Part shown: positions 16,185-54,971 of the stretch, one piece after another
How the letters are laid out: each line of letters starts with the position of its first letter
Position numbering within the stretch: position 1 is the stretch's first letter
The notes under the pieces: generated by a model
Databases searched by the model: none
What the model was told of the DNA's origin: nothing
Seen by the model: the letters and a program-made list of their open reading frames with translations, nothing else
Translations under genes and position numbers: made by a program
Source: Candidatus Altimarinota bacterium
GTDB lineage: Bacteria; Patescibacteriota; Gracilibacteria; BD1-5; UBA2023
Length of the DNA: 64,000 nucleotides
Direction: 5' to 3'
NCBI GenBank assembly: GCA_028277205.1
Contig: JANQGT010000004.1
Coordinates: 40,348 to 104,347, forward strand

Positions 16185-19100
16185 TTAGAATGTCGTTCCT
16201 CCTCATCCCGCTGGCGCTTCTCCCGGACTCACACCGGCTTTAGGAGCTGTTGCTCCGCCTGCTTCTCATTGTGACGGCAGATCCGATGGTGGGTCCGATG
16301 GTGGGTCCGATGGCGGGGAGTCCGATTCACCTGAGGCGACTTGTTTGGTTTCGTCATCGAGATCTATCCCTCTGGCAACTCCGAGTCCGAAATTTCGTCC
16401 CACCGCCCGAAGCGTATACGGCTGTACCGTCAGTCCTTTTTGGATGGGGACGATCTCATTTCGGATTTGAAAATTCGAGATCAGGAGCGCGTCATTCGCG
16501 CAGTCTCCCCACTTCGCGTAGGCGATGTCAAAGGAGATCGTATCGTCTGAAGTATTTTTCATCGCAGCGATGAGTGCCTCTCTCTCCATACCCGTCAACT
16601 GTACGAGCGCCGCTATGAAGTGATCCGGAAGCGCGTCGACGAGTGTCTCGCGGACGGTGGCATCGTCAATGGGGTGCATAAACGGTCCGTCTGCTCCCGG
16701 GAGCTTCGCAAGCTCGATGGATCCGGATATCGGCATCATACCGCGATGGACGAGCTCTCCACCCTCTACCATGCTCGATACTGGAAAGGCAATGGCATTT
16801 TCATTCGAAAGCGTCGTGGACTCGGTATAGGTCGCATCTTTCGCCGCTTCGTTGAATGCATCTTGTGCTTCCTGGATAACACTCTCAGGAATTCCCTGCT
16901 TTGCTAAATACTCGCGAAATACGCGCTGGCGCTGATAGGCTTTATTTGTATGTCCGAGCGATGTATCGAATGTCGCGACACTCATCTGCAGGAGAATATA
17001 CTGCTGCGCCAGATTTTCATTCATGTCCTCCGGTACATGTCGGAGTGGATTTTCTCCCTCCAGAATCCTATCCAGTCGAGCGATGTTTGCCCGTCCGAGC
17101 TGACTGACAATGCGCTGAATCGCGTCAGTATGCTCCTCCTGCGTTACACCGATTTTTCCTCGATCATTGAGGCTGTGCATATAGCGAGAGTAGACAGACT
17201 CGAGGATAGCTCGTTTGAGGGTATCGGCATTCTGATCTGCCTCTATCGCTGTGAAGGCAGCGCTCACGCCATCCGCACCGGCAAATGCTCTATACTGTCA
17301 TCTTCTTCCGTTCACGAGCTGCATGAATCGATCCCATGCATTCCCCAGTTTGCTCGGATTATTTGCCTGTGCGACGATGAGATCCTGGAGATCTCCATCG
17401 CGTCCACCCCGGTCGATATGCTCACGCAGTGCAGATCGGATCGTGCGATAGTCATCATTATCGAGGATTTCTTTCGTCTCGAGTGTCTGCATCGCCTGCG
17501 TCTCCGAGAGCGTCGGAGCCGTGACGATTTTCCTGTCTGACTCATCCCAGCTGTCGGGGATACCCTGATGATCCGACCGATCATAGACAAATGCTCCGCG
17601 TCCGTCCGTACGCGCCCGCTCGATATACAGGACACTGCGACGATATTCGCCGTCATACATCGTCGCGACGAAGAGTTGTTCTTCTTCGGCGCCGGTGATA
17701 TAGTACCCATCCTTACCCTCGTATATCTGCACGCCTGTACTCGCTGGTGCACGATCTATAGCACCGATTTCATCAAATGGGAAATAGTACGCCTGGGTTC
17801 CGCCAATCTCTACGTAGTTGTGCGCTCGCATCTCAAATGGCTTTGTCGTGAGTCCCGCCTCGATCTCCTGGTGGCGCGTGCTCTGCATACGCTGGTAAAT
17901 CGCGTCCGTCTGCTCTATATTCAGCGCTCCTGCGACGATGAGCGCTACCGTCCCGATACCGCCCGTCGCGAGTATGGACGCGAGTCCGACTCCGAATCCG
18001 ACACCGATATTTACGCCCGAGAGACGCAGTCCCTCGTTTTCCTCTGTCAGATTCGCTTTGTACCATGCGGTGATGGCGAGACCGATACGTTTATACAGTG
18101 CTTCTTTTTCCTCTTGACTTCCACTGCTATCGACCCCGATATCATGTGCGACTCTTTTCATGAGTTCGATGATTTCCTTAAATCCATCCTTATCCTCATC
18201 CGAGACTGATACACCCTCGAAGTTGTCTCTTTCATCATCCGCGAGATTTATAGCGATTTGCTCCATCACCCCTCCAAATGCCGCAGACTGCCGCTCGATA
18301 GCGGGATTTTTTTCATGAGCCATGAATGAAACACCCCCTCCAACATCAAATATGCTCGCCGCCGCACTCACCGTCACTCGCGCATCGGAAGGTAAATCTT
18401 TGAAATACGACTGCTCATCTCCCCAAGACCACTGCGCCAGATCCTGAGAGATCACGGCGAATGGAATAAAATTCATGAGACCAGCCGTACCATGTCCTCC
18501 TTCCCACAGTTCCCAGCTTTTCGAAACGCCGATTCCCGGTATGTTATTGAAAAAACCAATTTGGAGGCTGTCAAACCAGAGATCCAACTGCTCAATATCT
18601 ATGGATGCACCAGCACTCACTCCGTCCGGTCAAAACATGACTCCGGCGAATTCCAAAAAGAGTATAGAGAAGAATTTCGTTTGCTCGGCTTCGCTCGATA
18701 TTTTATCAAGGATCTCTCTTACATTTTGATGTTCTCCAGCAGTTTGCTTGAACCTATTCCATTTATCTTCTCCGATTTTGTTGATTATTTCATCCGCGAT
18801 CTGACCATCGCGAATCTTCATCTCCTCATGATACTTTCCCGATCGTCCCGCCTCCATCGCCGCGATACCGCCGAGTGCCGCGTGCGTCAGGTAGTAGCGC
18901 GCAAATTTTGTGCATGCCCGCTCCCTCTTGCTTGCATCTTGCCAGTCACTCACCTGAACGTCCGCCCGATTCATCAATGCTACAAACTCATCGACACTCA
19001 TCCGGATGAGTCGATCATACACGGCATTTTCCGTACCGGCGGCGTGATCGTCTCCGTCCGAGAGATCGCCATCGCGATCGAAATCACAGAGATCTCGCAC

Positions 19101-21713
19101 CATCCTGGAGTAGTTTGTATATCTTCCTTCCGCTTCTTTATCGCGGACGACACCCAGGAGAAAGAGATCAAACGCAATGACCTGCACCTCATCTCCATGC
19201 CAAAAATTATCATTGAAATTAAGTTTGCTCAATAAAAATGCTTTTGTCTCATCATAGGTAGCCCGACGAAATGTATTGTACAGTTCGCGTACTTGCTGGA
19301 GCGACATGTCCCGGATCGCGTCAAATGCTTCGCGATTTCCGCTCCAGTCCAGCCACTCGACCTCTCCCGTCTCGACGCTGTCGATACTGGGGATTTCTGT
19401 GCGTGGCGCATCCGAGAGAGATCTCATACGATCGAGCGCCGATCACTCCACCGGCACAGAGCGAAATCTCGATACAGCTTCTCGGCTCGGTCACGGGGTA
19501 GGTCGTGTAGGTATCGATGGGGCGACAGATGCAGGGGGTGTGGGTCGTACCGCCTCGGCTCCGGTCTGCGCTCCGGATTTCGCGGCATATGCCGCGAAAA
19601 GGGCTTTGTAAGTTATTTCTCCGGGCGCGCCGTCAACAGATCCGGCTGTTCCCCGCTGTGCCGTCTGGAATCTGCGAACGGCATTTTTCGTATTCGTACC
19701 AAAAACTCCATCAATCTTTCAATCCGCCGGAGGAAATCCGAGCGCCGTAAGCATCGTCTGGACAGCTTTGATATAGGATCTGCTTCTGATGAGTTCGGAA
19801 TACCTTGCGCTCTCTACCGTCTGCAGGAAAGAGCGATATTCTTGGATTTTGGGGTTGACTGGTGCAGCTTCGGCTCGCCCTCCCTGTACAGGATCCTCGC
19901 TATCACCATTATGTCTATCGATACCACCAAATATTCCGGAAATTGCTGCAGTCGGAATGCCCATTCCTAAAAGCGTTTCTCTAAAAGTAATCCTGTTTGC
20001 TCGATAATTCGGGTCGCTCTGAGAGAGTCTCCGAAGGGTGCTATCAGACAGAGGTAGATCAATAAGTTTCCATCAATAATTGGGAATGCGAAATTGAAGA
20101 ACTATATTCAATTTGTTGTTGTCTTCTCTTTCTACTTCTGCGAATGTCTCGTCTTGTGCAATCCTCTCTGGTATCTCAAACCTCGCCAGATCCGCCGCGA
20201 GTGCTTGCTCGAATGTCGATTTTTCTGTTTCGGTTAGCTCGCCAGATCCGGGAGCCGCAGGCACCTCTGACGCAAAAAGCCCTTCGATGTGATCAATAGT
20301 CGCCTGTCGCGTGATCGGTCCTATCACGCCGTCAATATCATTTCCTGAAAGATTCACGCGAGATTGCATGTCCCGAACTTTGGCTCTTGTTGAATTTTGA
20401 TACACCTCTAAAATCGTCGTAAGCGTCGAAACAAGATTCTCTCGTCAATCTTTTGCTGCATTGAGCGCATCCTCGATATAGCGCTTGGTCAGGGAATTAT
20501 CTGTATCATTTTCGATACTCGATCTGCTCACTCGGATAGCAGATCACGCATCTCGTTCCCGCTCCCATCTTCTATGTATCTCTAGAGCACTACGGACGAT
20601 CGTCGTCCGACTATCATTATCCATAGTATTTCTATTCCGAACAAGTCTCCTCTGCAATCCCTCTATCGCCTGCATGTCTGCTACGGTCGCATAGGGTTGA
20701 CGCTGGATACCATCTCTTCACATCTCGTACAGACCCGAGAGATAGGCAAATGTGCTTTCATTTGAGGCTACGACAACTCTCGCATCTATGTCGCTGGATC
20801 CCATCTTCGAATAGTCGGGAATTTCTCCGGGAGTCACTCCTGCCGGTGGCCTACCCACCCCCGTCCCTGTGCCCGGCATCGTCCATGTCTGTTCATTTTC
20901 TATGTCCCTTGCGAGATAGTACAGCATATTTGAATACGTATCCCTATCCAATCTTCCACTCGGAACGAAAGGCGCTGCAGCTTGTTCCGTAGTCATTCTT
21001 CTGGCATTCCTATGCAGATTTTGCTGCAGTGCCGATATACTCTCTTGTGATGGATTTGGGGCTGTGACGATACCATAAATAGCCCTGATATTTTCTCTTC
21101 GTGCACTCCCGTCTCTCGCATTATCGGTAGCGAGCGAAAGTATGGCCTGTATATTATGACGGACGTGCGTATCGTCGACTATGAGATCTATCGCATCTCC
21201 GACATCCAAAGTGGACTCGGGTATTTTATTTATATCAATCTTGATAATGTGCTTGAAAATCTCTTCTTGTTTTTTCTTGATAATCTTCCAATCAATGAAG
21301 TACTGAGCAATCTGATTCTTTGCGGCTTGTTCGGCATTTTCCGACGCTTCGGATATTTTATCACCATCCCCATCATAAACACGTGCACGTGCCTGGGTAC
21401 CTCCCGATGAGTCGGACGAATCGGCTATGCGCACGAGAGCATCGAGGATTCTTTCGCCTGCTCGCGGTTCGACAGCCTGTGACCATGATTGCACATCTAT
21501 CGCCGCCTGAAGTGCGCCTACTTTTTTTCTCACTTCATTTGTGATATTTTGTCGATCCACATCCATCGCCTCGAGAAGTCTCCGCGCTTCAGCAGAGGAG
21601 ATTTTTTTGCCCTCTTCACTATCATCAGCGGTGATCTGTTCAAACACTCTCTCTATATGAGTCTGGTCTCCTCTTTCCGGACCATCCATTCTATTATTGT
21701 TCCTTGTTGCCAT
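16185..21713 (-). CDS. Giant protein (1842 aa) with no signal peptide, two peptidoglycan-binding-like repeats and a Gly-zipper hydrophobic segment
   Basis: ORFs 20718..21713, 20073..20405, 19719..19964, 18630..19427, 17298..18620 and 16266..17267 share one minus frame. I translated every gap and found only TGA (11 in total), with no TAA or TAG until TAA 16185..16187. Confidence 0.8.
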
Positions 21714-29187: not shown

Positions 29188-29760
29188 ATGCCAACGCATG
29201 ATGATCTCCTCGGGTCCGCCGAGTGCGTGTTTGAGGGTGTGCTCTGGGATGTATATCAGTGGGAGCAGGAGTTGTTTGACGGATCGTTTTCGACATTTGA
29301 GACCATAGCGCGGAGGATGGGGACCGTCGATATCATCGTGGTTGACGGTGATCGCATCGGCATCACCTATCAGGAGCAGCCGAAAAAGGGGAAATTTTAT
29401 TCGCTGTATGGCGGACGTCTGGAGCCGGGCGAGTCCCCCGAAGAAGGAGCGCGACGAGAGCTGTTGGAAGAGTCGGGGTATGAGGCGTGAGAGCTGGAGT
29501 TGTATAATACCTATAGCTTTTCATCCAGCTGTCGGTGGGAAAATCCGTTTTTCATCGCGCGAGATCTGCGAAAAATCGCCGAGCCAACTCCCGATGCAGG
29601 CGAGCGTATCCAGGCGGTGTGGCTCGACTTCGACGAATTTAGCGATATGATCATCCGGGAAAAAATCCGCACGAATACAAAATTTGCCCTCGAACTCGCA
29701 CGCGCGAAAATCGACGGGGCGTTTAGTCAAGTCCGCAATCATATCCTCTGACACTCATAG
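29188..29760 (+). CDS. NUDIX hydrolase
   Basis: Nudix box GGRLEPGESPEEGARRELLEESG. Two TGA are read through. Confidence 0.8.
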
Positions 29761-42404: not shown

Positions 42405-42683
42405 TTTGGGAGAAAAATTATTGACAGGAGAGGGAGTATACGAATTTCATGAGAGTTTCAAAAGTTTTAGCACGACAGGGGTTTTTGCATACTCGCCTTG
42501 GATCAATTCGTACCTTTGAATTTTCAATCACATTCTCAACTCCATATATATACAGTGAATAATTCCAGCCGGTGGCAGAGGGCTTTGCGGAGGAGGTATG
42601 GACGATACTTCGTCCCGATTATTATGTGCTGGTCATACGCATCGGCAAAGTTCAACGCAAAGCCATTGTATAGAAAACCGATA

Positions 42684-42770
42684 CTTGCAAAACCCGCAAT
42701 ATTTCGTAGTATCGCCTTTTCGTTTTCAGCCCGCCCGTCATGAAATTCGCGCTCGTCCAGGGGAGTATGA
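42684..42770 (+). repeat. 87-bp direct repeat, left copy (promoter + 5'UTR + first 10 codons of the FMN-reductase gene, ending in a dead stub)
   Basis: It matches 43424..43510 with 4 mismatches. It contains TTGCAA-16-TAGTAT (42685..42712) and ATGAAATTCGCGCTCGTCCAGGGGAGTATGA. The stub reads MKFALVQGSMSHKI then stop. Confidence 0.85.
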
Positions 42771-42825
42771 GTCACAAAATATAATCTTTCATCATAGATG
42801 ATTTATGATAGAATGAATATGGTCA

Positions 42826-43422
42826 ATGTTGAAAGGTATTGACTGGGAAAGAGTAGTAATAGTCTGTGCCTTTATCTCATCAGCTGCGGCAGCTGCGTCT
42901 GCATATCTTTCCTTGGAAAATACAAAAATCACAATCAAAAAGTGGGAAAATGAAAGAGAGAAAGATCGTCCGTATTTTAGCGTACAGAATGCAATAATCG
43001 AAGGATCAGATCAGCAATGTTATAGGATAATTATCCCTTGTCATAATTTTGGTACCATCCCTGCACTGGATATTTCATGGAAAATATTTCTCATCGGTCA
43101 TGATTTTCGGTCTTGTATTCAAGATATCGAATCGTGTATCTATAAAAGCAATATTGCTCCAACGATGCCTTTCAAGCTTGTACTTGATAATTTTCAATTT
43201 CAAATATCCGAATCAGTAGTTCTTATTCATTGATTTTTTCTTGTACTGCAAATACAGTATACATCCTTTTTTCATGAGAAACAGTATTTACAAGAAATAT
43301 ATCTCAAATGGAACGGGGGACGAAAAGAAAATATAATGATGAATTTAGCAAACGTATCATACGAGGAGGGCATCAAGATAGATCGGTACCTGAAAAACAG
43401 AAGCCTACAGCAGACAGGATAA
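42826..43422 (+). CDS. Hypothetical single-pass membrane protein (198 aa) encoded on the AT-rich insert
   Basis: ORF 42826..43233 continues through one TGA to TAA 43420..43422, which is 1 nt before the right repeat. N-terminal TM helix VVIVCAFISSAAAAASAYLSL. Confidence 0.5.
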
Positions 43423-43423
43423 C

Positions 43424-43510
43424 CTTGCAAAACCCGCAATATTTCGTAGTATCGCCTTTTCGTCTTCAGCCTATCCGTCATGAAATTCGCGCTCGTCCAG
43501 GGGAGTATGA
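43424..43510 (+). repeat. 87-bp direct repeat, right copy (functional promoter and start of the FMN-reductase gene)
   Basis: See the left copy. TTGCAA-16-TAGTAT lies at 43425..43452. Confidence 0.85.
43425..43452 (+). promoter_or_regulatory. Candidate promoter of the FMN-reductase gene (duplicated at 42685..42712)
   Basis: TTGCAA-16 nt-TAGTAT, 28 nt upstream of ATG 43480. Confidence 0.4.
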
Positions 43511-44032: not shown

Positions 44033-47000
44033 ATGACATCCTTTCCTCCCGTCGATCCGAAGCAATCATTTTGGCAGCTGCAGCAGGAAATCCTCGAATA
44101 CTGGAAACAACACGACACCTTTCGTCGGTCGATAGAAACCCGGTCTGCCGACAATGCATACCGGTTTTACGACGGTCCGCCGTTTATCACGGGGACACCA
44201 CACTACGGGAGCCTGCTGTCCAGTATCGTCAAAGACGTCGTCGGGCGCTACTGGACGATGCGCGGCAAGCGCGTGGAGCGCGTGTGGGGCTGGGACTGTC
44301 ACGGCGTCCCCATCGAGCAAAAAGTGCAAAAATCCCTCGGCATCGAGACGAGTCGCGAGATCGAGGATCGGGTGGGTATCGAGCGATTTATCGAGGAGTG
44401 CTACCGCTACACCCGCGACACCTCCGCCGAGTGGAGCTGGTATATAGACAATATCGGACGATGGGTCGATCTCGCGGGAGCGTACCGCACGATGGATCAG
44501 GACTATATGGAGTCGGTGCTCTGGGTATTTCGGACGCTGTGGGAGCGCGGACATATCTACGAGGGAAAGCGCGTCTCGCTCTACTCTACGGCGCTCTCGA
44601 CGCCCATTTCAAATTTTGAGGTGGCGATGGACAACTCGTACGCCGAGGCAAATGATCCGGCGATTACAGTCGCATTCGATCTGTCGGTCAACTGACCAGA
44701 GTGGGAAAATACCTACGCGCTCGCCTGGACGACGACACCGTGGACGATCCCGGCAAATATGGCACTTGCGATCAATAAGAATGTCGAATATGTCGAGGTG
44801 GCACTACATGATGAAAAATATGCTCGAAACAATCGGGAAGCGTGGTTCATCGTCGCAAAAAACCGGGTCGATATAGTGTTTCATGGGAGAGAATACACAG
44901 TGAAAGAAGGAATCGCATCCGAAAAGCTCATCTGACTGCTTTACACGCCTCCCTTTGATTTTTACGCTGGAAAAACCGGGAATGAAAACGACCACCGCAT
45001 CTATCACGGTGATTTCATCACGGACACGGACGGGACGGGGATCGGGCACGAGGCGCCGGAGTTTGGTGACTATGATTTCGAGCAGATCGCGAAACCCTAC
45101 GGCGTGACAGTCTCGAATGCGCTGGATACAGAGGGGAAATACACGGCGGAAATACCGGACTTTCAGGGGATATTTTATCGGGATGCAAATGATACGATCA
45201 TGCAGCGACTCGCCGAGAAATGACAGCTTTTCAAAAAAGAGAGCATCACGCACCGTGTCGCGTTTTGTCCGCGATCCGGCACACCACTGATCTATAAAGC
45301 GCAAAATTCCTGGTTTGTGGATATCCAGTCGTCAAAACAAAAACTCCTGTCGGAAAACGAAAATATCGACTGGTTTCCCGCACATTTCAAGCACGGAAGA
45401 TTTCAAAAAAGCGTGGAGGCGGCGCCCGACTGGTGCGTCTCTCGTACGCGATACTGGGGAACGCCAATGCCGGTATGGCGCTCGGCGGACGGCTCGGAGA
45501 CGATCGTCGTCGGATCGCGCGACGAGATCATGCAGCTCACGCGGGACGAGGGCATCATCACCAAGATTATCTTCGTGCGACACGGGAGAACCGACTACAA
45601 TGAAAAGAAGTGCTATGACGGCGAGGGAAAGGCGAGACTGACAGATGCAGGACAAAGACAGGCGGAGGAATTTGCAAACGCATTTCGCGATACGGACATC
45701 GACGCAATATATTCATCACCGCTGCAGCGGTGTGTGGATACCGTGACACCGCTTGCAAATGTGAAAAATATGAGCATTCAGACGGATGAGCGCCTGAGCG
45801 AGATGAGCATTCCAGACATACAGGATACCCCGGTAAACTATCGGGATCGACGCTGGAAATACAATCCCCACGAGGGCGGAGAGACCCCCGCAGAAATTTC
45901 CGAGCGATCGATGAAATTTCTACGAGAAGCAATCGCAAGACATCGCGGGCAGACGATCGTGATCTGTACCCATTCAGAGCCGTCCGTGACTATGCGTCTC
46001 GCCATACACCAGGCGGACTACGATACGCGAAAGCCTGAATTTTCACTCACAAACAACCCGAAAAAATCCGGAAAAATGTACGCCGTCGACTATATCTTTT
46101 CCGACGACTGCACGCTCTTTGATCTGCATCGTCCGTATATCGACCGCGTGAAAATCAAAAGTCCGAAAACCGGAAACACTCTCACACGCATCCCCGAGGT
46201 ACTGGATGTCTGGATGGACTCCGGATCGATGCCGTACGCGCAGCTTCATTATCCGTTTGAAAACGAGCAAAAGATGGAGGCGAGCTTTCCCGCCGATTTC
46301 ATCGCGGAGTACGTGGGACAGGTGCGCGCGTGGTTTTATCTCATGCATGTGGTGAGCACGCTTTTGTTTGATTCGCCTGCATTTTTGCATGTCATCGTCA
46401 CCGGCGTCATCTATGGAAACGACGGTCGGAAAATGAGCAAGAGCTTTCAAAACTATCCCGATCCCCGAGCCACGATCGAAAAATACGGCGCCGATCCCAT
46501 CCGGTTTTACACGCTTTCGAGTCCGCTTCTTTCAGGGGGCGATATCAATTTTTCGGAGGACGGCATCATCGACGCGACGAAGCGCATCATCCTCCCTCTC
46601 TGGAATGCGTACTCGTTTTTCACCACCTATGCGAATATCGACGGGTGGACGTCAGAGAGAGGAGAGACGATATTCGTACGGCACGGAGAGACGCATGAAA
46701 ATGCCGAAAAGAAGCTCAACGGAGGAGCCGACGACAGTCCGCTCAACGAGACGGGACAAACGCAGGCAACAGAGGCGGGAAAGCGACTGGCACTCGAGGG
46801 AAAAGCGTTTGATCTCATCATCACCTCACCGAAAATACGCGCACGAAAAACCGCCGAGAGCATCGCGCAGGAGACCGGGTATACCGGAGAGATTCTTGTC
46901 GAGTCGGGATTTATCGAGCAGGACTATGGTCGATACCACGGCATGACACACGAACAAATCAAGGCAGAGTACCAGCAAACACACTGACACCTCGACCACT

Positions 47001-48298
47001 GGACGAGCGCATATCGGGAAAATGAAACGGAGCCGTTTGATGATTTCGTCGATCGAGTCGTATCCGCATACGAGCGCATCCAGTCCCAGCACCCTGAGAA
47101 AAATATCCTGATCGTCGCCCACGGTGGGACGCTGCGCGCGCTGCGGTATCGATTTTACGGACTCTCCAGAGAGGAGGGAGTCTACGGACAGTACGGCTAT
47201 GCAAACTGCGAGATCATGCCGCTGCCGCGACGAGCACTCGGAAATATCCTGGACACATGGCTCATCACAAAATCTCAGCGGATGATCCGGACGGTCAATG
47301 AGGCATTTGAATCGTACAATATCCCCGTCGCCGCCAGGGCGATTTCCACATTTCTCGATGAGCTGACAAACTGGTATATTCGTCGATCACGCCGGCGATT
47401 TTGGCGATCGGAAAACGACACGGACAAACAGGAGGCATACGAGACGCTCTACTCGACACTCGTCGATCTCGTACGCGTCATGGCGCCGCTCACTCCATTT
47501 ACGAGTGAATATATCTATCGCGCGCTCACGGGACGCGAATCCGTCCACCTCGATCTCATACCGCAGCACAATAACGCACGAATCCTCACCGGGATCGAGT
47601 CCGCCATGGACACGACACGATCGGTCGTCGCTCTCGGTCTCGCCCTGCGCGCCCGCAAAAAAATCCGCGTCCGCCAACCTCTGCGATCCATCACGATCGC
47701 CGTCGATCTGGATGCGTACTATCTGGATATCATCCGCGAAGAGCTCAATGTCAAGGAAGTAAAGTTCGCTCGCGCCGAGACCATAGCCCAGCGCATCGGA
47801 AAGCCGAATGCCCGTCTGCTCGGCGCAAAGCTCGGCTCTGCAGTGCAGGAGGTGATTCGCCTCGCAAAAGCGGGACAATTTACCGAAAACGCCGACGGCA
47901 CGATCGCGGTCGGAGAGTACGCGCTTGCACAGGATGAGTTTGAAATCGTCTACGAACCCCTGGATGATAATGACAATGTAGAGTGAGACGGGACGACCGT
48001 CATCGCCATGGATCTGGATATCGACGAGGCGCTGGCGCGGGAGGGTGCGGCGCGCGATCTGGTACGAGCGGTGCAGGATCTGCGAAAAGAAGCGGGGTAC
48101 GAGGTGTCGGATCGGATAGCGCTTGCGATCACAGACAAAGACGGACATGGCGATATCGGGACACTCGTAGCCGAGCATAAAGACTATATCGAGACGGAGA
48201 CGCTGTCGGAGATAGTGGAGCGTATGAGCAGCCCCGATAAACAAGCACCCATCGTCATAGACGCGATAGAGTACACCCTCACCGTCGCGAAACGATAG
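44033..48298 (+). CDS. ileS: Isoleucyl-tRNA synthetase (type 2) with two inserted histidine-phosphatase-like domains (1421 aa)
   Basis: One frame runs 44033..48298 with 5 TGA; I translated the 44696..45316 gap explicitly. IleRS motifs: TGTPHYGS (HIGH), [76 protein letters not shown]. The two inserts carry [10 protein letters not shown]...CTHSEP and [10 protein letters not shown]...[11 protein letters not shown]. Confidence 0.9.
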
Positions 48299-51510: not shown

Positions 51511-51595
51511 TGGTGCGGAGGGGGGGACTTGAACCCCCACGGATTGCTCCACACGCCCCTCAAGCGTGCGTGTCTACCAATTCCACCACCACCGC
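51511..51595 (-). tRNA. tRNA-Leu (anticodon GAG), class II with long variable arm, CCA encoded
   Basis: GCGGTGG TG GTGG AATTGGTAGA CAC G CACGC TTGAGGG GCGTG TGGAGCAATCCGT GGGGG TTCAAGT CCCCC CCTCCGC A CCA. There is one U-U mismatch in the acceptor stem. Confidence 0.85.
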
Positions 51596-54637: not shown

Positions 54638-54716
54638 GCGGGGGTAACTTAAATGAGCGAGAGTGCTGAGGCTTCAACCCTCGGATGTGCGGGTTCAAAC
54701 CCCGTCCCCCGCTCCA
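54638..54716 (+). tRNA. tRNA-Gly with anticodon UCA (UGA decoder)
   Basis: GCGGGGG TA ACTT..GAGT G CTGAGG CTTCAAC CCTCGG ATGT GCGGG TTCAAAC CCCGT CCCCCGC T CCA. The anticodon TCA lies at 54674..54676. G1:C72, C2:G71, G3:C70 and U73 are the bacterial glycine identity set. Confidence 0.85.
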
Positions 54717-54893: not shown

Positions 54894-54971
54894 GGCGGAT
54901 GTAGTTCAGTCGGTTAGAACACCAGACTGTGAATCTGGATGTCGTGGGTTCGAATCCCATCATTCGCCCCA
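54894..54971 (+). tRNA. tRNA-His (anticodon GUG) with encoded G-1
   Basis: G GCGGATG TA GTTC AGTCGGTTA GAAC A CCAGA CTGTGAA TCTGG ATGTC GTGGG TTCGAAT CCCAT CATTCGC C CCA. Confidence 0.9.

Follow-up and report, generated by a model that had tools for sequence, protein, structure and literature searches.

What fills the extra length of an isoleucyl-tRNA synthetase (IleRS) whose gene runs far beyond that of its close relatives? The question is raised by ileS in the window analysed here, a stretch of 64,000 nucleotides from contig JANQGT010000004.1 of the Candidatus Altimarinota bacterium assembly GCA_028277205.1, where a single 1421-codon frame on the forward strand (44033..48298, stop codon TAG) encodes a protein 394 residues longer than the insert-free close relative P0045 (1027 aa). 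An earlier sequence-only reading, made by a model from the letters and translations alone, had proposed a type-2 IleRS carrying two histidine phosphatase domains in different loops. We find both domains to be complete, with intact catalytic sets, and refer to them as modules B and E after the insertion sites defined below.

The synthetase core and its two phosphatase modules

A Pfam scan of the translation under genetic code table 25 matched tRNA-synt_1 (379 bits), Anticodon_1, DUF5915 and, in two separate stretches, His_Phos_1. Among solved structures the closest by sequence were 8wnd (1e-195) and 8c8u (6e-193), with the type-1 enzyme 1ffy trailing at 8e-72, and the isolated structures of the connective peptide 1 (CP1) editing domain, 1wk8 and 1wny, aligned with residues 203-408. 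Compared with Priestia megaterium IleRS2 (8c8u/8c8v), yeast IleRS (8wnd) and Thermus thermophilus IleRS (1ile), all synthetase parts and landmark motifs are in place and in the usual order (Table 1), with sequence E-values of 1e-195 to 7e-170 for the solved type-2 and related enzymes and a fold match of TMq 0.67-0.71 for the model of a shorter homologue. None of the solved enzymes listed aligns across the modules: alignment to 8wnd pairs query residues 12-504 with 9-493, 695-863 with 497-665 and 1070-1396 with 689-1044, skipping both inserts, which lie in two different loops as had been claimed. Because the alignment gaps fall exactly at the inserts, module B stands in place of about 3 residues and module E in place of a linker about 23 residues long, so that phosphatase domains of about 190 residues occupy loops of these lengths in the yeast enzyme. 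By these alignments the window protein is a type-2 isoleucyl-tRNA synthetase with an intact core. The possibility, left open at the outset, that this is a decaying copy beside an insert-free one found no support, as the core shows no decay and no second ileS was found within the 64-kb window. The HIGH motif of the window protein reads HYGS, with Ser at the fourth position, as it does in all close relatives and most Gracilibacteria-type relatives; two relatives, L037 and L077, have HYGH, as in yeast.

Searched alone against His_Phos_1 (PF00300), module B scored 126.2 bits (E 1.7e-36) and module E 155.6 bits (E 1.6e-45), which excludes chance matches given the curated cut-off of 21.7 bits. The insert limits first proposed (45554..46102 and 46652..47224) agree with those found here (45545-46114 and 46649-47239), and the motifs that had been quoted are all present at the places given. 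Like PhoE (1h2e), PspA (4ij5) and CobC of branch 1 of the PF00300 family, both modules have the complete RHG...R...E...H set in about 190-200 residues, which are predicted to form alternating beta/alpha structure, and PspA 4ij5 and PhoE 1h2e are their neighbours in the PDB. They differ from these enzymes in being embedded in another enzyme and in reaching no equivalog model, the best partial NCBIfam matches being to CobC, RNase H/acid phosphatase and PspA, none of them at its cut-off. The original label of phosphoglycerate-mutase-like therefore holds for the histidine phosphatase superfamily and fails for mutase, as no equivalog cut-off for cofactor-dependent phosphoglycerate mutase (dPGM) was reached; the modules are predicted to be of the generic phosphatase type and not mutases. 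Across 21 B and 48 E modules from relatives, the catalytic Arg, His, Asn, second Arg and distal His are kept in 95-100% of copies and the acid Glu in 90% (B) and 100% (E), at mean module identities of 35% (B) and 48% (E) and identities of 66% and 73% for the matching cores. Low overall identity combined with strictly kept catalytic residues is, on these alignments, a signature of selection on catalysis, and we infer that both modules are active phosphomonoesterases with the RHG histidine as nucleophile.

Inteins are likewise large in-frame insertions in essential housekeeping genes, and here, as had been noted from the letters alone, their features are absent: we found no Hint or endonuclease match in Pfam, no HN[CST] at either C-junction and no nucleophile pattern, and the inserts are conserved enzyme domains. 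A recent mobile-element or horizontal insertion was also rejected, as junction repeats are only 12-21 nt long, at chance level. Module GC (0.51 and 0.56) is in line with the core range of 0.52-0.56, and the codon-usage cosine of the modules is slightly lower, a measure confounded by amino-acid composition. Nor is one module a recent duplicate of the other: B and E share about 28% identity and each resembles its own orthologues more closely, so they represent separate old lineages.

Structure models were made with AlphaFold2 of two shorter homologues. For P0092 (972 aa), whose B module belongs to the window subtype, the model reached a mean pLDDT of 84 and a pTM of 0.82, with pLDDT 90-97 in the module, and that of P0063 (an N-terminally truncated protein with an E module) reached a pTM of 0.54 overall, with module pLDDT 85-96; in both, the module is confidently predicted as an alternating beta/alpha fold. 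Foldseek searches with the P0092 scaffold placed IleRS2 first, together with yeast IleRS (TMq 0.67-0.71), and left roughly the module unmatched; all of the top 50 matches were synthetases, with TMq no higher than 0.71. By alignment, module B is in the connective-peptide region before the second Rossmann half, a region that we take to be CP3. For module E the flanking residues are informative, as Asn660 of yeast IleRS touches the anticodon-loop backbone (PMC11685878) and N647 of P. megaterium IleRS2 helps read A35/U36 (bioRxiv 10.64898/2026.02.03.703510). The structure-sequence alignment makes N858 of the window protein the equivalent of both residues, and module E starts at residue 873, 15 residues later, and therefore hangs off the anticodon-binding region.

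Under table 11, ileS has five interruptions, every one of them TGA (codons 221, 301, 397, 985 and 1318). Three of the five (301, 397 and 1318) align with Gly positions conserved among homologues, and homologues called with table 4 give Trp where Gly is invariant, for example in RFWWAPMPVW. The window also contains a tRNA with anticodon UCA that has G1:C72, C2:G71, G3:C70 and U73, which make up the glycine identity set. Because TGA falls at conserved Gly positions and the tRNA(UCA) carries Gly identity elements, use of genetic code 25 (UGA = Gly) by the host genome, the code under which the gene was first translated, is supported. The public protein collection has the window gene only as P0121, a 556-aa code-11 call on a 138-kb NCBI contig that covers the piece between two TGA codons (45317-46987, +); this record appears to be annotated with the wrong genetic code, and the intact 1421-aa product appears to be missing from protein databases.

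Modules in related synthetases

The survey of relatives that the sequence-only reading had called for shows that the architecture is far from isolated: modules occur in at least 60 protein clusters and in 42 of the 69 near-full-length, species-level loci in a scan of one genome per species, and the B+E arrangement recurs in many independent assemblies. Whole-protein searches returned many IleRS clusters of Gracilibacteria and Absconditabacteria with PF00300, others with NUDIX, Ser_hydrolase (PF06821) or GNAT domains, and also insert-free relatives of about 1030 aa. Five of the relatives (P0001-P0005; 1419-1509 aa) are 50-61% identical to the window protein over about the whole length and carry the two phosphatase modules, flanked by the same motifs as in the window protein.

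By anchoring relatives on conserved IleRS motifs, which was possible for 108 proteins, we located five discrete insertion sites, A to E, each taking modules of a set size (Table 1). At least one module was present in 61 of the 108 anchored relatives and none in the other 47, with the caveat that cluster representatives are not independent samples, and 15 module combinations were seen, the B+E pattern occurring in five proteins, the window protein included. Eight loci in the species scan have B and E only, among them that of the oral 'Ca. Gracilibacteria bacterium GN02-873', and the closest relative there, L005, has 1421 aa and is 61% identical. Up to five or six modules can occupy a single IleRS: L037 (1971 aa) has Pfam-confirmed NUDIX, His_Phos, two Ser_hydrolase and His_Phos domains, and L017 (2165 aa) has an extra His_Phos at a sixth site (F), between the WFY helix and KMSKS. 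Two further loci are unusual in other ways. A 246-aa in-frame segment at site D of P0040/L023 (OZ245768.1, a 1.49-Mb chromosome) matches the IS200-like transposase family Y1_Tnp at 35 bits. In L003, an IleRS with tandem His_Phos modules (Logan ERR15087792 contig, ~653-1360), one in-frame TAA/TAG stands at the junction of module and synthetase (...ESEIK*LDLHKPRID...), which may mean that ileS is split there, that it is a pseudogene or that the assembly is in error.

Module identity rises with core identity (Spearman 0.55 for B and 0.76 for E), and in no case does a module much exceed its core in similarity, so descent has been mostly vertical. On a quick neighbour-joining tree of the cores, module E is largely clade-coherent and modules A, B and C vary between close sisters: P0005 has B+E and P0013 only E; P0066 has only C and P0068 none. 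At site B several divergent subtypes exist, and they can differ where the cores are nearly the same, with site-B modules 46% identical in P0050 and P0052 (cores 96%) and 41% in P0004 and P0005 (cores 91%), and tandem double modules occur there in P0087, P0006 and L003. This pattern could have arisen by differential loss from tandem states or by exchange of cassettes. Overall, the modules are old and have been passed on mostly vertically, with repeated losses.

The C-terminal tail of module B (D-Y-D-T..K) sets it apart from other family members and is shared with a free-standing protein of Gracilibacteria. This protein, P0270 (MBS9783912.1), is a 190-aa homologue of module B encoded in a metagenome-assembled genome between miaA and clpB; its gene (L004 6001-6573, GCA_018457335.1) lies directly downstream of miaA (tRNA isopentenyltransferase), a single case that may be coincidence. 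P0126, which represents the cluster, shares 44% identity with module B (residues 6-183 of 190), and the characteristic C-terminal tail is part of the match. P0125 was rejected as a free-standing homologue, being a code-11 fragment of an IleRS with tandem modules.

Modules also occur in lineages that use the standard code. Dojkabacteria-type IleRS have His_Phos_1 at site B (70.7 bits) and a CP1 insert of about 190 aa, seen in L051, L048 and L062 (Dojkabacteria/Saccharibacteria-labelled loci), that matches the PDB entries 2fbl/3typ 'NE1496' (E 1.5e-8); a Pfam scan of this insert gave no CYTH match. We take 2fbl/NE1496 to be NeuTTM, the CYTH inorganic triphosphatase of Nitrosomonas europaea. NeuTTM has been discussed as a possible 'metabolite proofreading' enzyme (PMC3440374). 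In the lineage of L077, NUDIX is found inside CP1 and Ser_hydrolase at site B instead of site C. The same few families thus entered independently at different positions. A link between modules and recoding was rejected, since standard-code lineages have modules too.

As a control we searched with a leucyl-tRNA synthetase (LeuRS), the one adjoining ileS on the contig of P0001 (L002 1-2600, -), which is a single gene under table 25 and has an extra ASCH-like segment after RYWGEPIP. Among the 120 LeuRS matches listed (P0273-P0392), at least 13 carry NUDIX, 6 Ser_hydrolase, 2 GNAT and 7 a Ham1-type ITPase, and none carries His_Phos_1. These modules have fixed sites of their own, with NUDIX in CP1, Ser_hydrolase before the Thr-rich motif and Ham1 as a C-terminal fusion. 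Specificity of modules for IleRS was therefore rejected, and the window protein is one case of a wider habit, in which class Ia synthetases of the lineage accrete small house-cleaning hydrolases and transferases.

Table 1. Features of the window ileS, its decoding tRNA, and module insertion sites in anchored IleRS relatives
Feature	Residues or bounding motifs	Window position (nt)	Strand	Description
IleRS N-terminal part	aa 1-504	44033..45544	+	First half of Rossmann fold and CP1 editing domain, up to YWGTPMPVW (aa 474-482)
HIGH-like motif PHYGS	aa 56-60	44198-44212	+	Class I signature motif
WTTTPWT	aa 232-238			CP1 Thr-rich motif
GTGIGHEAP	aa 334-342			CP1 motif
Module B, His_Phos_1	aa 505-694	45545..46114	+	Between YWGTPMPVW strand and DLHRPYID, just before second Rossmann half
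Module B catalytic set	R516, H517, N523, R566, E590, H647	45581-45583 (H517)		
IleRS middle part	aa 695-872	46115..46648	+	[23 protein letters not shown]; second half of Rossmann fold, KMSKS, first anticodon-binding helix with N858
KMSKS	aa 800-804			
Module E, His_Phos_1	aa 873-1069	46649..47239	+	Loop after first anticodon-binding helix
Module E catalytic set	R883, H884, N890, R936, E962, H1030	46682-46684 (H884)		
IleRS C-terminal part	aa 1070-1421	47240..48298	+	Anticodon_1 (aa 1074-1219), type-2 domain DUF5915 (aa 1232-1420)
[12 protein letters not shown]	aa 1113-1124			Synthetase feature
In-frame TGA codons of ileS		44693-44695, 44933-44935, 45221-45223, 46985-46987, 47984-47986	+	Read as Gly
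tRNA, anticodon UCA		54638..54716	+	ARAGORN label 'SeC'; decodes ileS TGA codons
Site A	NDPAITV to WTTTPWT			Spacing 18, about 145-190 aa with module; NUDIX, rarely GNAT
Site B	YWGTPMP to DLHRPYID			Spacing 32/51, 210-224 aa with module; His_Phos
Site C	DLHRPYID to PEVLDVW			Spacing 14-16, 190-198 aa with module; Ser_hydrolase
Site D	MPYAQ to PADF			Spacing 15, 176-178 aa with module; GNAT
Site E	YANID to LTNWY			Spacing 51-58, 239-246 aa with module; His_Phos

Possible roles of the modules

The account that we favour, tentatively and at somewhat short of an even chance, is that the modules are phosphohydrolases that work on their own on small molecules, probably of the nucleotide type, as clean-up enzymes, with the class Ia synthetase as their scaffold. 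With UGA read as Gly, ileS would be translated as one chain of about 160 kDa that is the working type-2 IleRS of the organism, and both inserted domains would hydrolyse small phosphoesters as autonomous 'house-cleaning' enzymes. The large, essential and constitutively expressed synthetase would serve as their carrier in a reduced genome, and the synthesis of Ile-tRNA would be unchanged. This role is suggested by the company that the modules keep (MutT-like NUDIX, Ham1 ITPase and the CYTH-like triphosphatase homologue), by attachment points that vary and include a terminal fusion, by the existence of the free-standing B-type homologue P0270, and by the pairing of Nudix and RHG domains in mycobacterial MutT1. 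Because close sisters without given modules keep intact cores, each module is dispensable for aminoacylation. MutT1 consists of an N-terminal Nudix domain and a C-terminal RHG histidine phosphatase (PMC11784022), and by analogy the phosphatase of NUDIX-bearing relatives may carry out the second step of a NUDIX-then-phosphatase relay. Like MutT1 and the bifunctional RNase H/acid phosphatase (NF005567), the window protein has a branch-1 phosphatase on one chain with a nucleotide or nucleic-acid enzyme, and like MutT1 its relatives unite NUDIX and His_Phos on one chain; unlike these end-to-end two-domain fusions, its own phosphatase domains sit in synthetase loops and are unaccompanied by NUDIX.

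Several observations weigh against autonomous house-cleaning. IleRS took up the same few families again and again, each time independently, at sites and in lineages that differ; such recruitment exceeds what random hitch-hiking would lead one to expect and may point to a functional tie with the chemistry of the synthetase. His_Phos is found in IleRS yet in none of the 120 LeuRS matches listed, which indicates some host specificity, and the attachment point of module E comes about 15 residues behind an Asn whose equivalents contact the anticodon loop in solved complexes. Insertion within loops would also be an odd route if only co-expression had been selected.

It is possible, though on balance not likely, that in Gracilibacteria and some other Patescibacteria the class Ia synthetases serve as platforms for several enzymes, on which the modules, together with the synthetase, destroy nucleotide by-products, mis-made aminoacyl compounds or damaged tRNA ends in situ. 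We regard as rather unlikely a coupled clean-up or extra proofreading step in which the modules act in cis on by-products of adenylation (Ap4A, Ap3A, adenosine tetraphosphate, AMP and pyrophosphate) or on mis-made aminoacyl compounds. Such coupling would fit the convergent recruitment of NUDIX at site A and in CP1, of Ser_hydrolase at sites C and B, of His_Phos at sites B, F and E and of the CYTH-like homologue in Dojkabacteria-type CP1, as well as the position of module E beside the anticodon-binding helix and the nature of the two hosts identified to date, since IleRS and LeuRS both belong to the editing enzymes of class Ia and make adenylates. Ap4A arises on synthetases from aminoacyl-AMP and ATP, although IleRS is not a notably strong producer of it. 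Coupling sits less well with modules being gained and lost between near-identical cores, or with the C-terminal Ham1 ITPase fusion in LeuRS, which has no obvious tie to adenylate by-products. The earlier suggestion of action beside the synthetase active site is weakened in particular, because the same kinds of module occur at many other sites and in LeuRS, the C-terminal fusion included.

The modules, and with them the Ser_hydrolase and GNAT modules seen in relatives, might instead defend the enzyme: natural synthetase inhibitors, for example mimics of aminoacyl-adenylates or mupirocin, an ester antibiotic, would be inactivated at the enzyme they target. IleRS is often targeted by natural antibiotics, aminoacyl-nucleotide toxins are acetylated by GNATs such as MccE, and mupirocin can be inactivated by esterases; a mixture of esterases, acetyltransferases and phosphohydrolases indeed looks like a detoxification toolkit, and patchy gain and loss would suit an arms race. 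We nevertheless consider defence improbable, as mupirocin has no phosphate, the modules are old and mostly vertical rather than newly acquired, no padloc or resistance-family evidence came to light, though none was sought, and type-2 IleRS is already reported to be mupirocin-tolerant (PMC10485003).

A phosphatase directed at tRNA is quite improbable as well. Module E, and possibly B, would dephosphorylate bound tRNA-Ile carrying a 2',3'-cyclic, 3' or 2' phosphate left by a nuclease, for which the placement of module E 15 residues after N858, whose equivalents contact the anticodon loop, and the presumed proximity of site B to the acceptor arm would be convenient, and the free-standing B-type homologue adjoins miaA. 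To our knowledge, however, no branch-1 histidine phosphatase has tRNA as its substrate; the closest families are small-molecule phosphatases, the module is missing in many close relatives with identical anticodon-binding motifs, and the miaA adjacency is a single case.

We give little credence to the idea that the inserts are the glycolytic dPGM of the cell. The public JGI product name of one relative, P0010 ('isoleucyl-tRNA synthetase/bisphosphoglycerate-dependent phosphoglycerate mutase'), implies a mutase, and both modules have weak partial matches to dPGM models, but these reach only 33.9 (B) and 59.7 (E) bits with TIGR01258 (cut-off 81.7, with N-terminal coverage only) and 28.9 and 59.0 with NF010713 (cut-off 305), and are outscored by the CobC, PspA and acid phosphatase models. 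Moreover, RHGxTxxN is a phosphatase-type motif and modules of about 190 residues are shorter than dPGM. Dead structural or regulatory pseudo-enzymes that modulate folding, tRNA binding or partner binding seem very improbable too: the modules evolve faster than the core and the distal His of module B is followed by Ser and not Gly (HSEP), but all catalytic residues are 90-100% conserved in 21 B and 48 E diverged copies, which would be unexpected for pseudo-enzymes. The chance that a chimeric assembly or a gene-calling fusion of neighbours produced the architecture is negligible, for although the genome is from an uncultured organism and public code-11 calls split the gene (P0121), the B+E order with conserved junctions recurs in assemblies from NCBI, JGI, ENA and Logan, among them contigs 394 kb and 683 kb long, and the inserts lie in frame inside conserved IleRS motifs with no repeats or compositional breaks.

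Genomic surroundings and significance

The neighbours of ileS (typA/bipA, FMN reductase, rnpA and yidC) give no functional clue, so operon context was set aside; phosphatase-related genes were found neither around the window ileS nor beside the insert-free P0045, and the 64-kb window contains no other His_Phos gene. A free-standing NUDIX-like stretch at about 29380-29649 (+) scored 30.8 bits against a hidden Markov model of the IleRS site-A modules, so the genome has a NUDIX gene of its own while its IleRS is without a NUDIX module. Most long open reading frames (ORFs) of the window also contain sense TGA codons. One very long ORF (16185-21713, -) has 11 of them in 1842 aa under table 25 and ends in a low-complexity C-terminus rich in Pro, Ser and Asp. 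Between typA and FMN reductase, GC dips to 0.36-0.41 at about 42500-43500, with flanking genes at about 0.52-0.58, and the sole ORF there (42622-43275, -) has 8 TGA codons. A tRNA-His (54895-54971) adjoins the tRNA(UCA), and a tRNA-Leu(GAG) lies at 51511-51595 (-).

The impression of novelty in the sequence-only reading stood with respect to the literature: full-text searches found no description of this architecture, and two recent papers on IleRS structure and evolution (PMC11685878; bioRxiv 10.64898/2026.02.03.703510) do not mention such inserts. The sequences and their precomputed Pfam matches were already public, and a 2026 survey reported synthetases to be preferred insertion hosts (PMC13114784). 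What is new here is the presence of catalytic hydrolases unrelated to aminoacylation in the loops of bacterial synthetases, as modular, lineage-variable sets. As in other cases of domain accretion by aminoacyl-tRNA synthetases, such as the CP1 editing insertion of class Ia and the appended domains of eukaryotic enzymes, the synthetase hosts extra domains. Unlike known bacterial inserts, which are editing or zinc-binding domains tied to aminoacylation, these are catalytic hydrolases and transferases that bear no relation to that reaction; one chain can have as many as five or six of them, and their presence or absence is lineage-specific.

Bacterial synthetases are textbook examples of conserved architecture, and unrelated catalytic domains inside them are unexpected; in a whole uncultured lineage the carriage of modules is the rule and not the exception, with a parallel set in LeuRS. 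The genes are publicly mis-annotated: some are split into code-11 fragments, and others bear the name 'class I tRNA ligase family protein' (all that one NCBI record says) or 'alpha/beta fold hydrolase' (the NCBI name of P0308, a module-bearing LeuRS of 1167 aa), and metabolic reconstructions may therefore miss or misplace phosphatase, NUDIX, esterase and ITPase functions. If the modules act in concert with the synthetase, they would represent a new kind of proofreading or metabolite repair, a second layer not known in any synthetase. If they are autonomous, as we tentatively favour, they would exemplify a striking economy of the genome through domain insertion in ultra-small symbionts, and would provide a natural map of insertion-tolerant loops for protein engineering.

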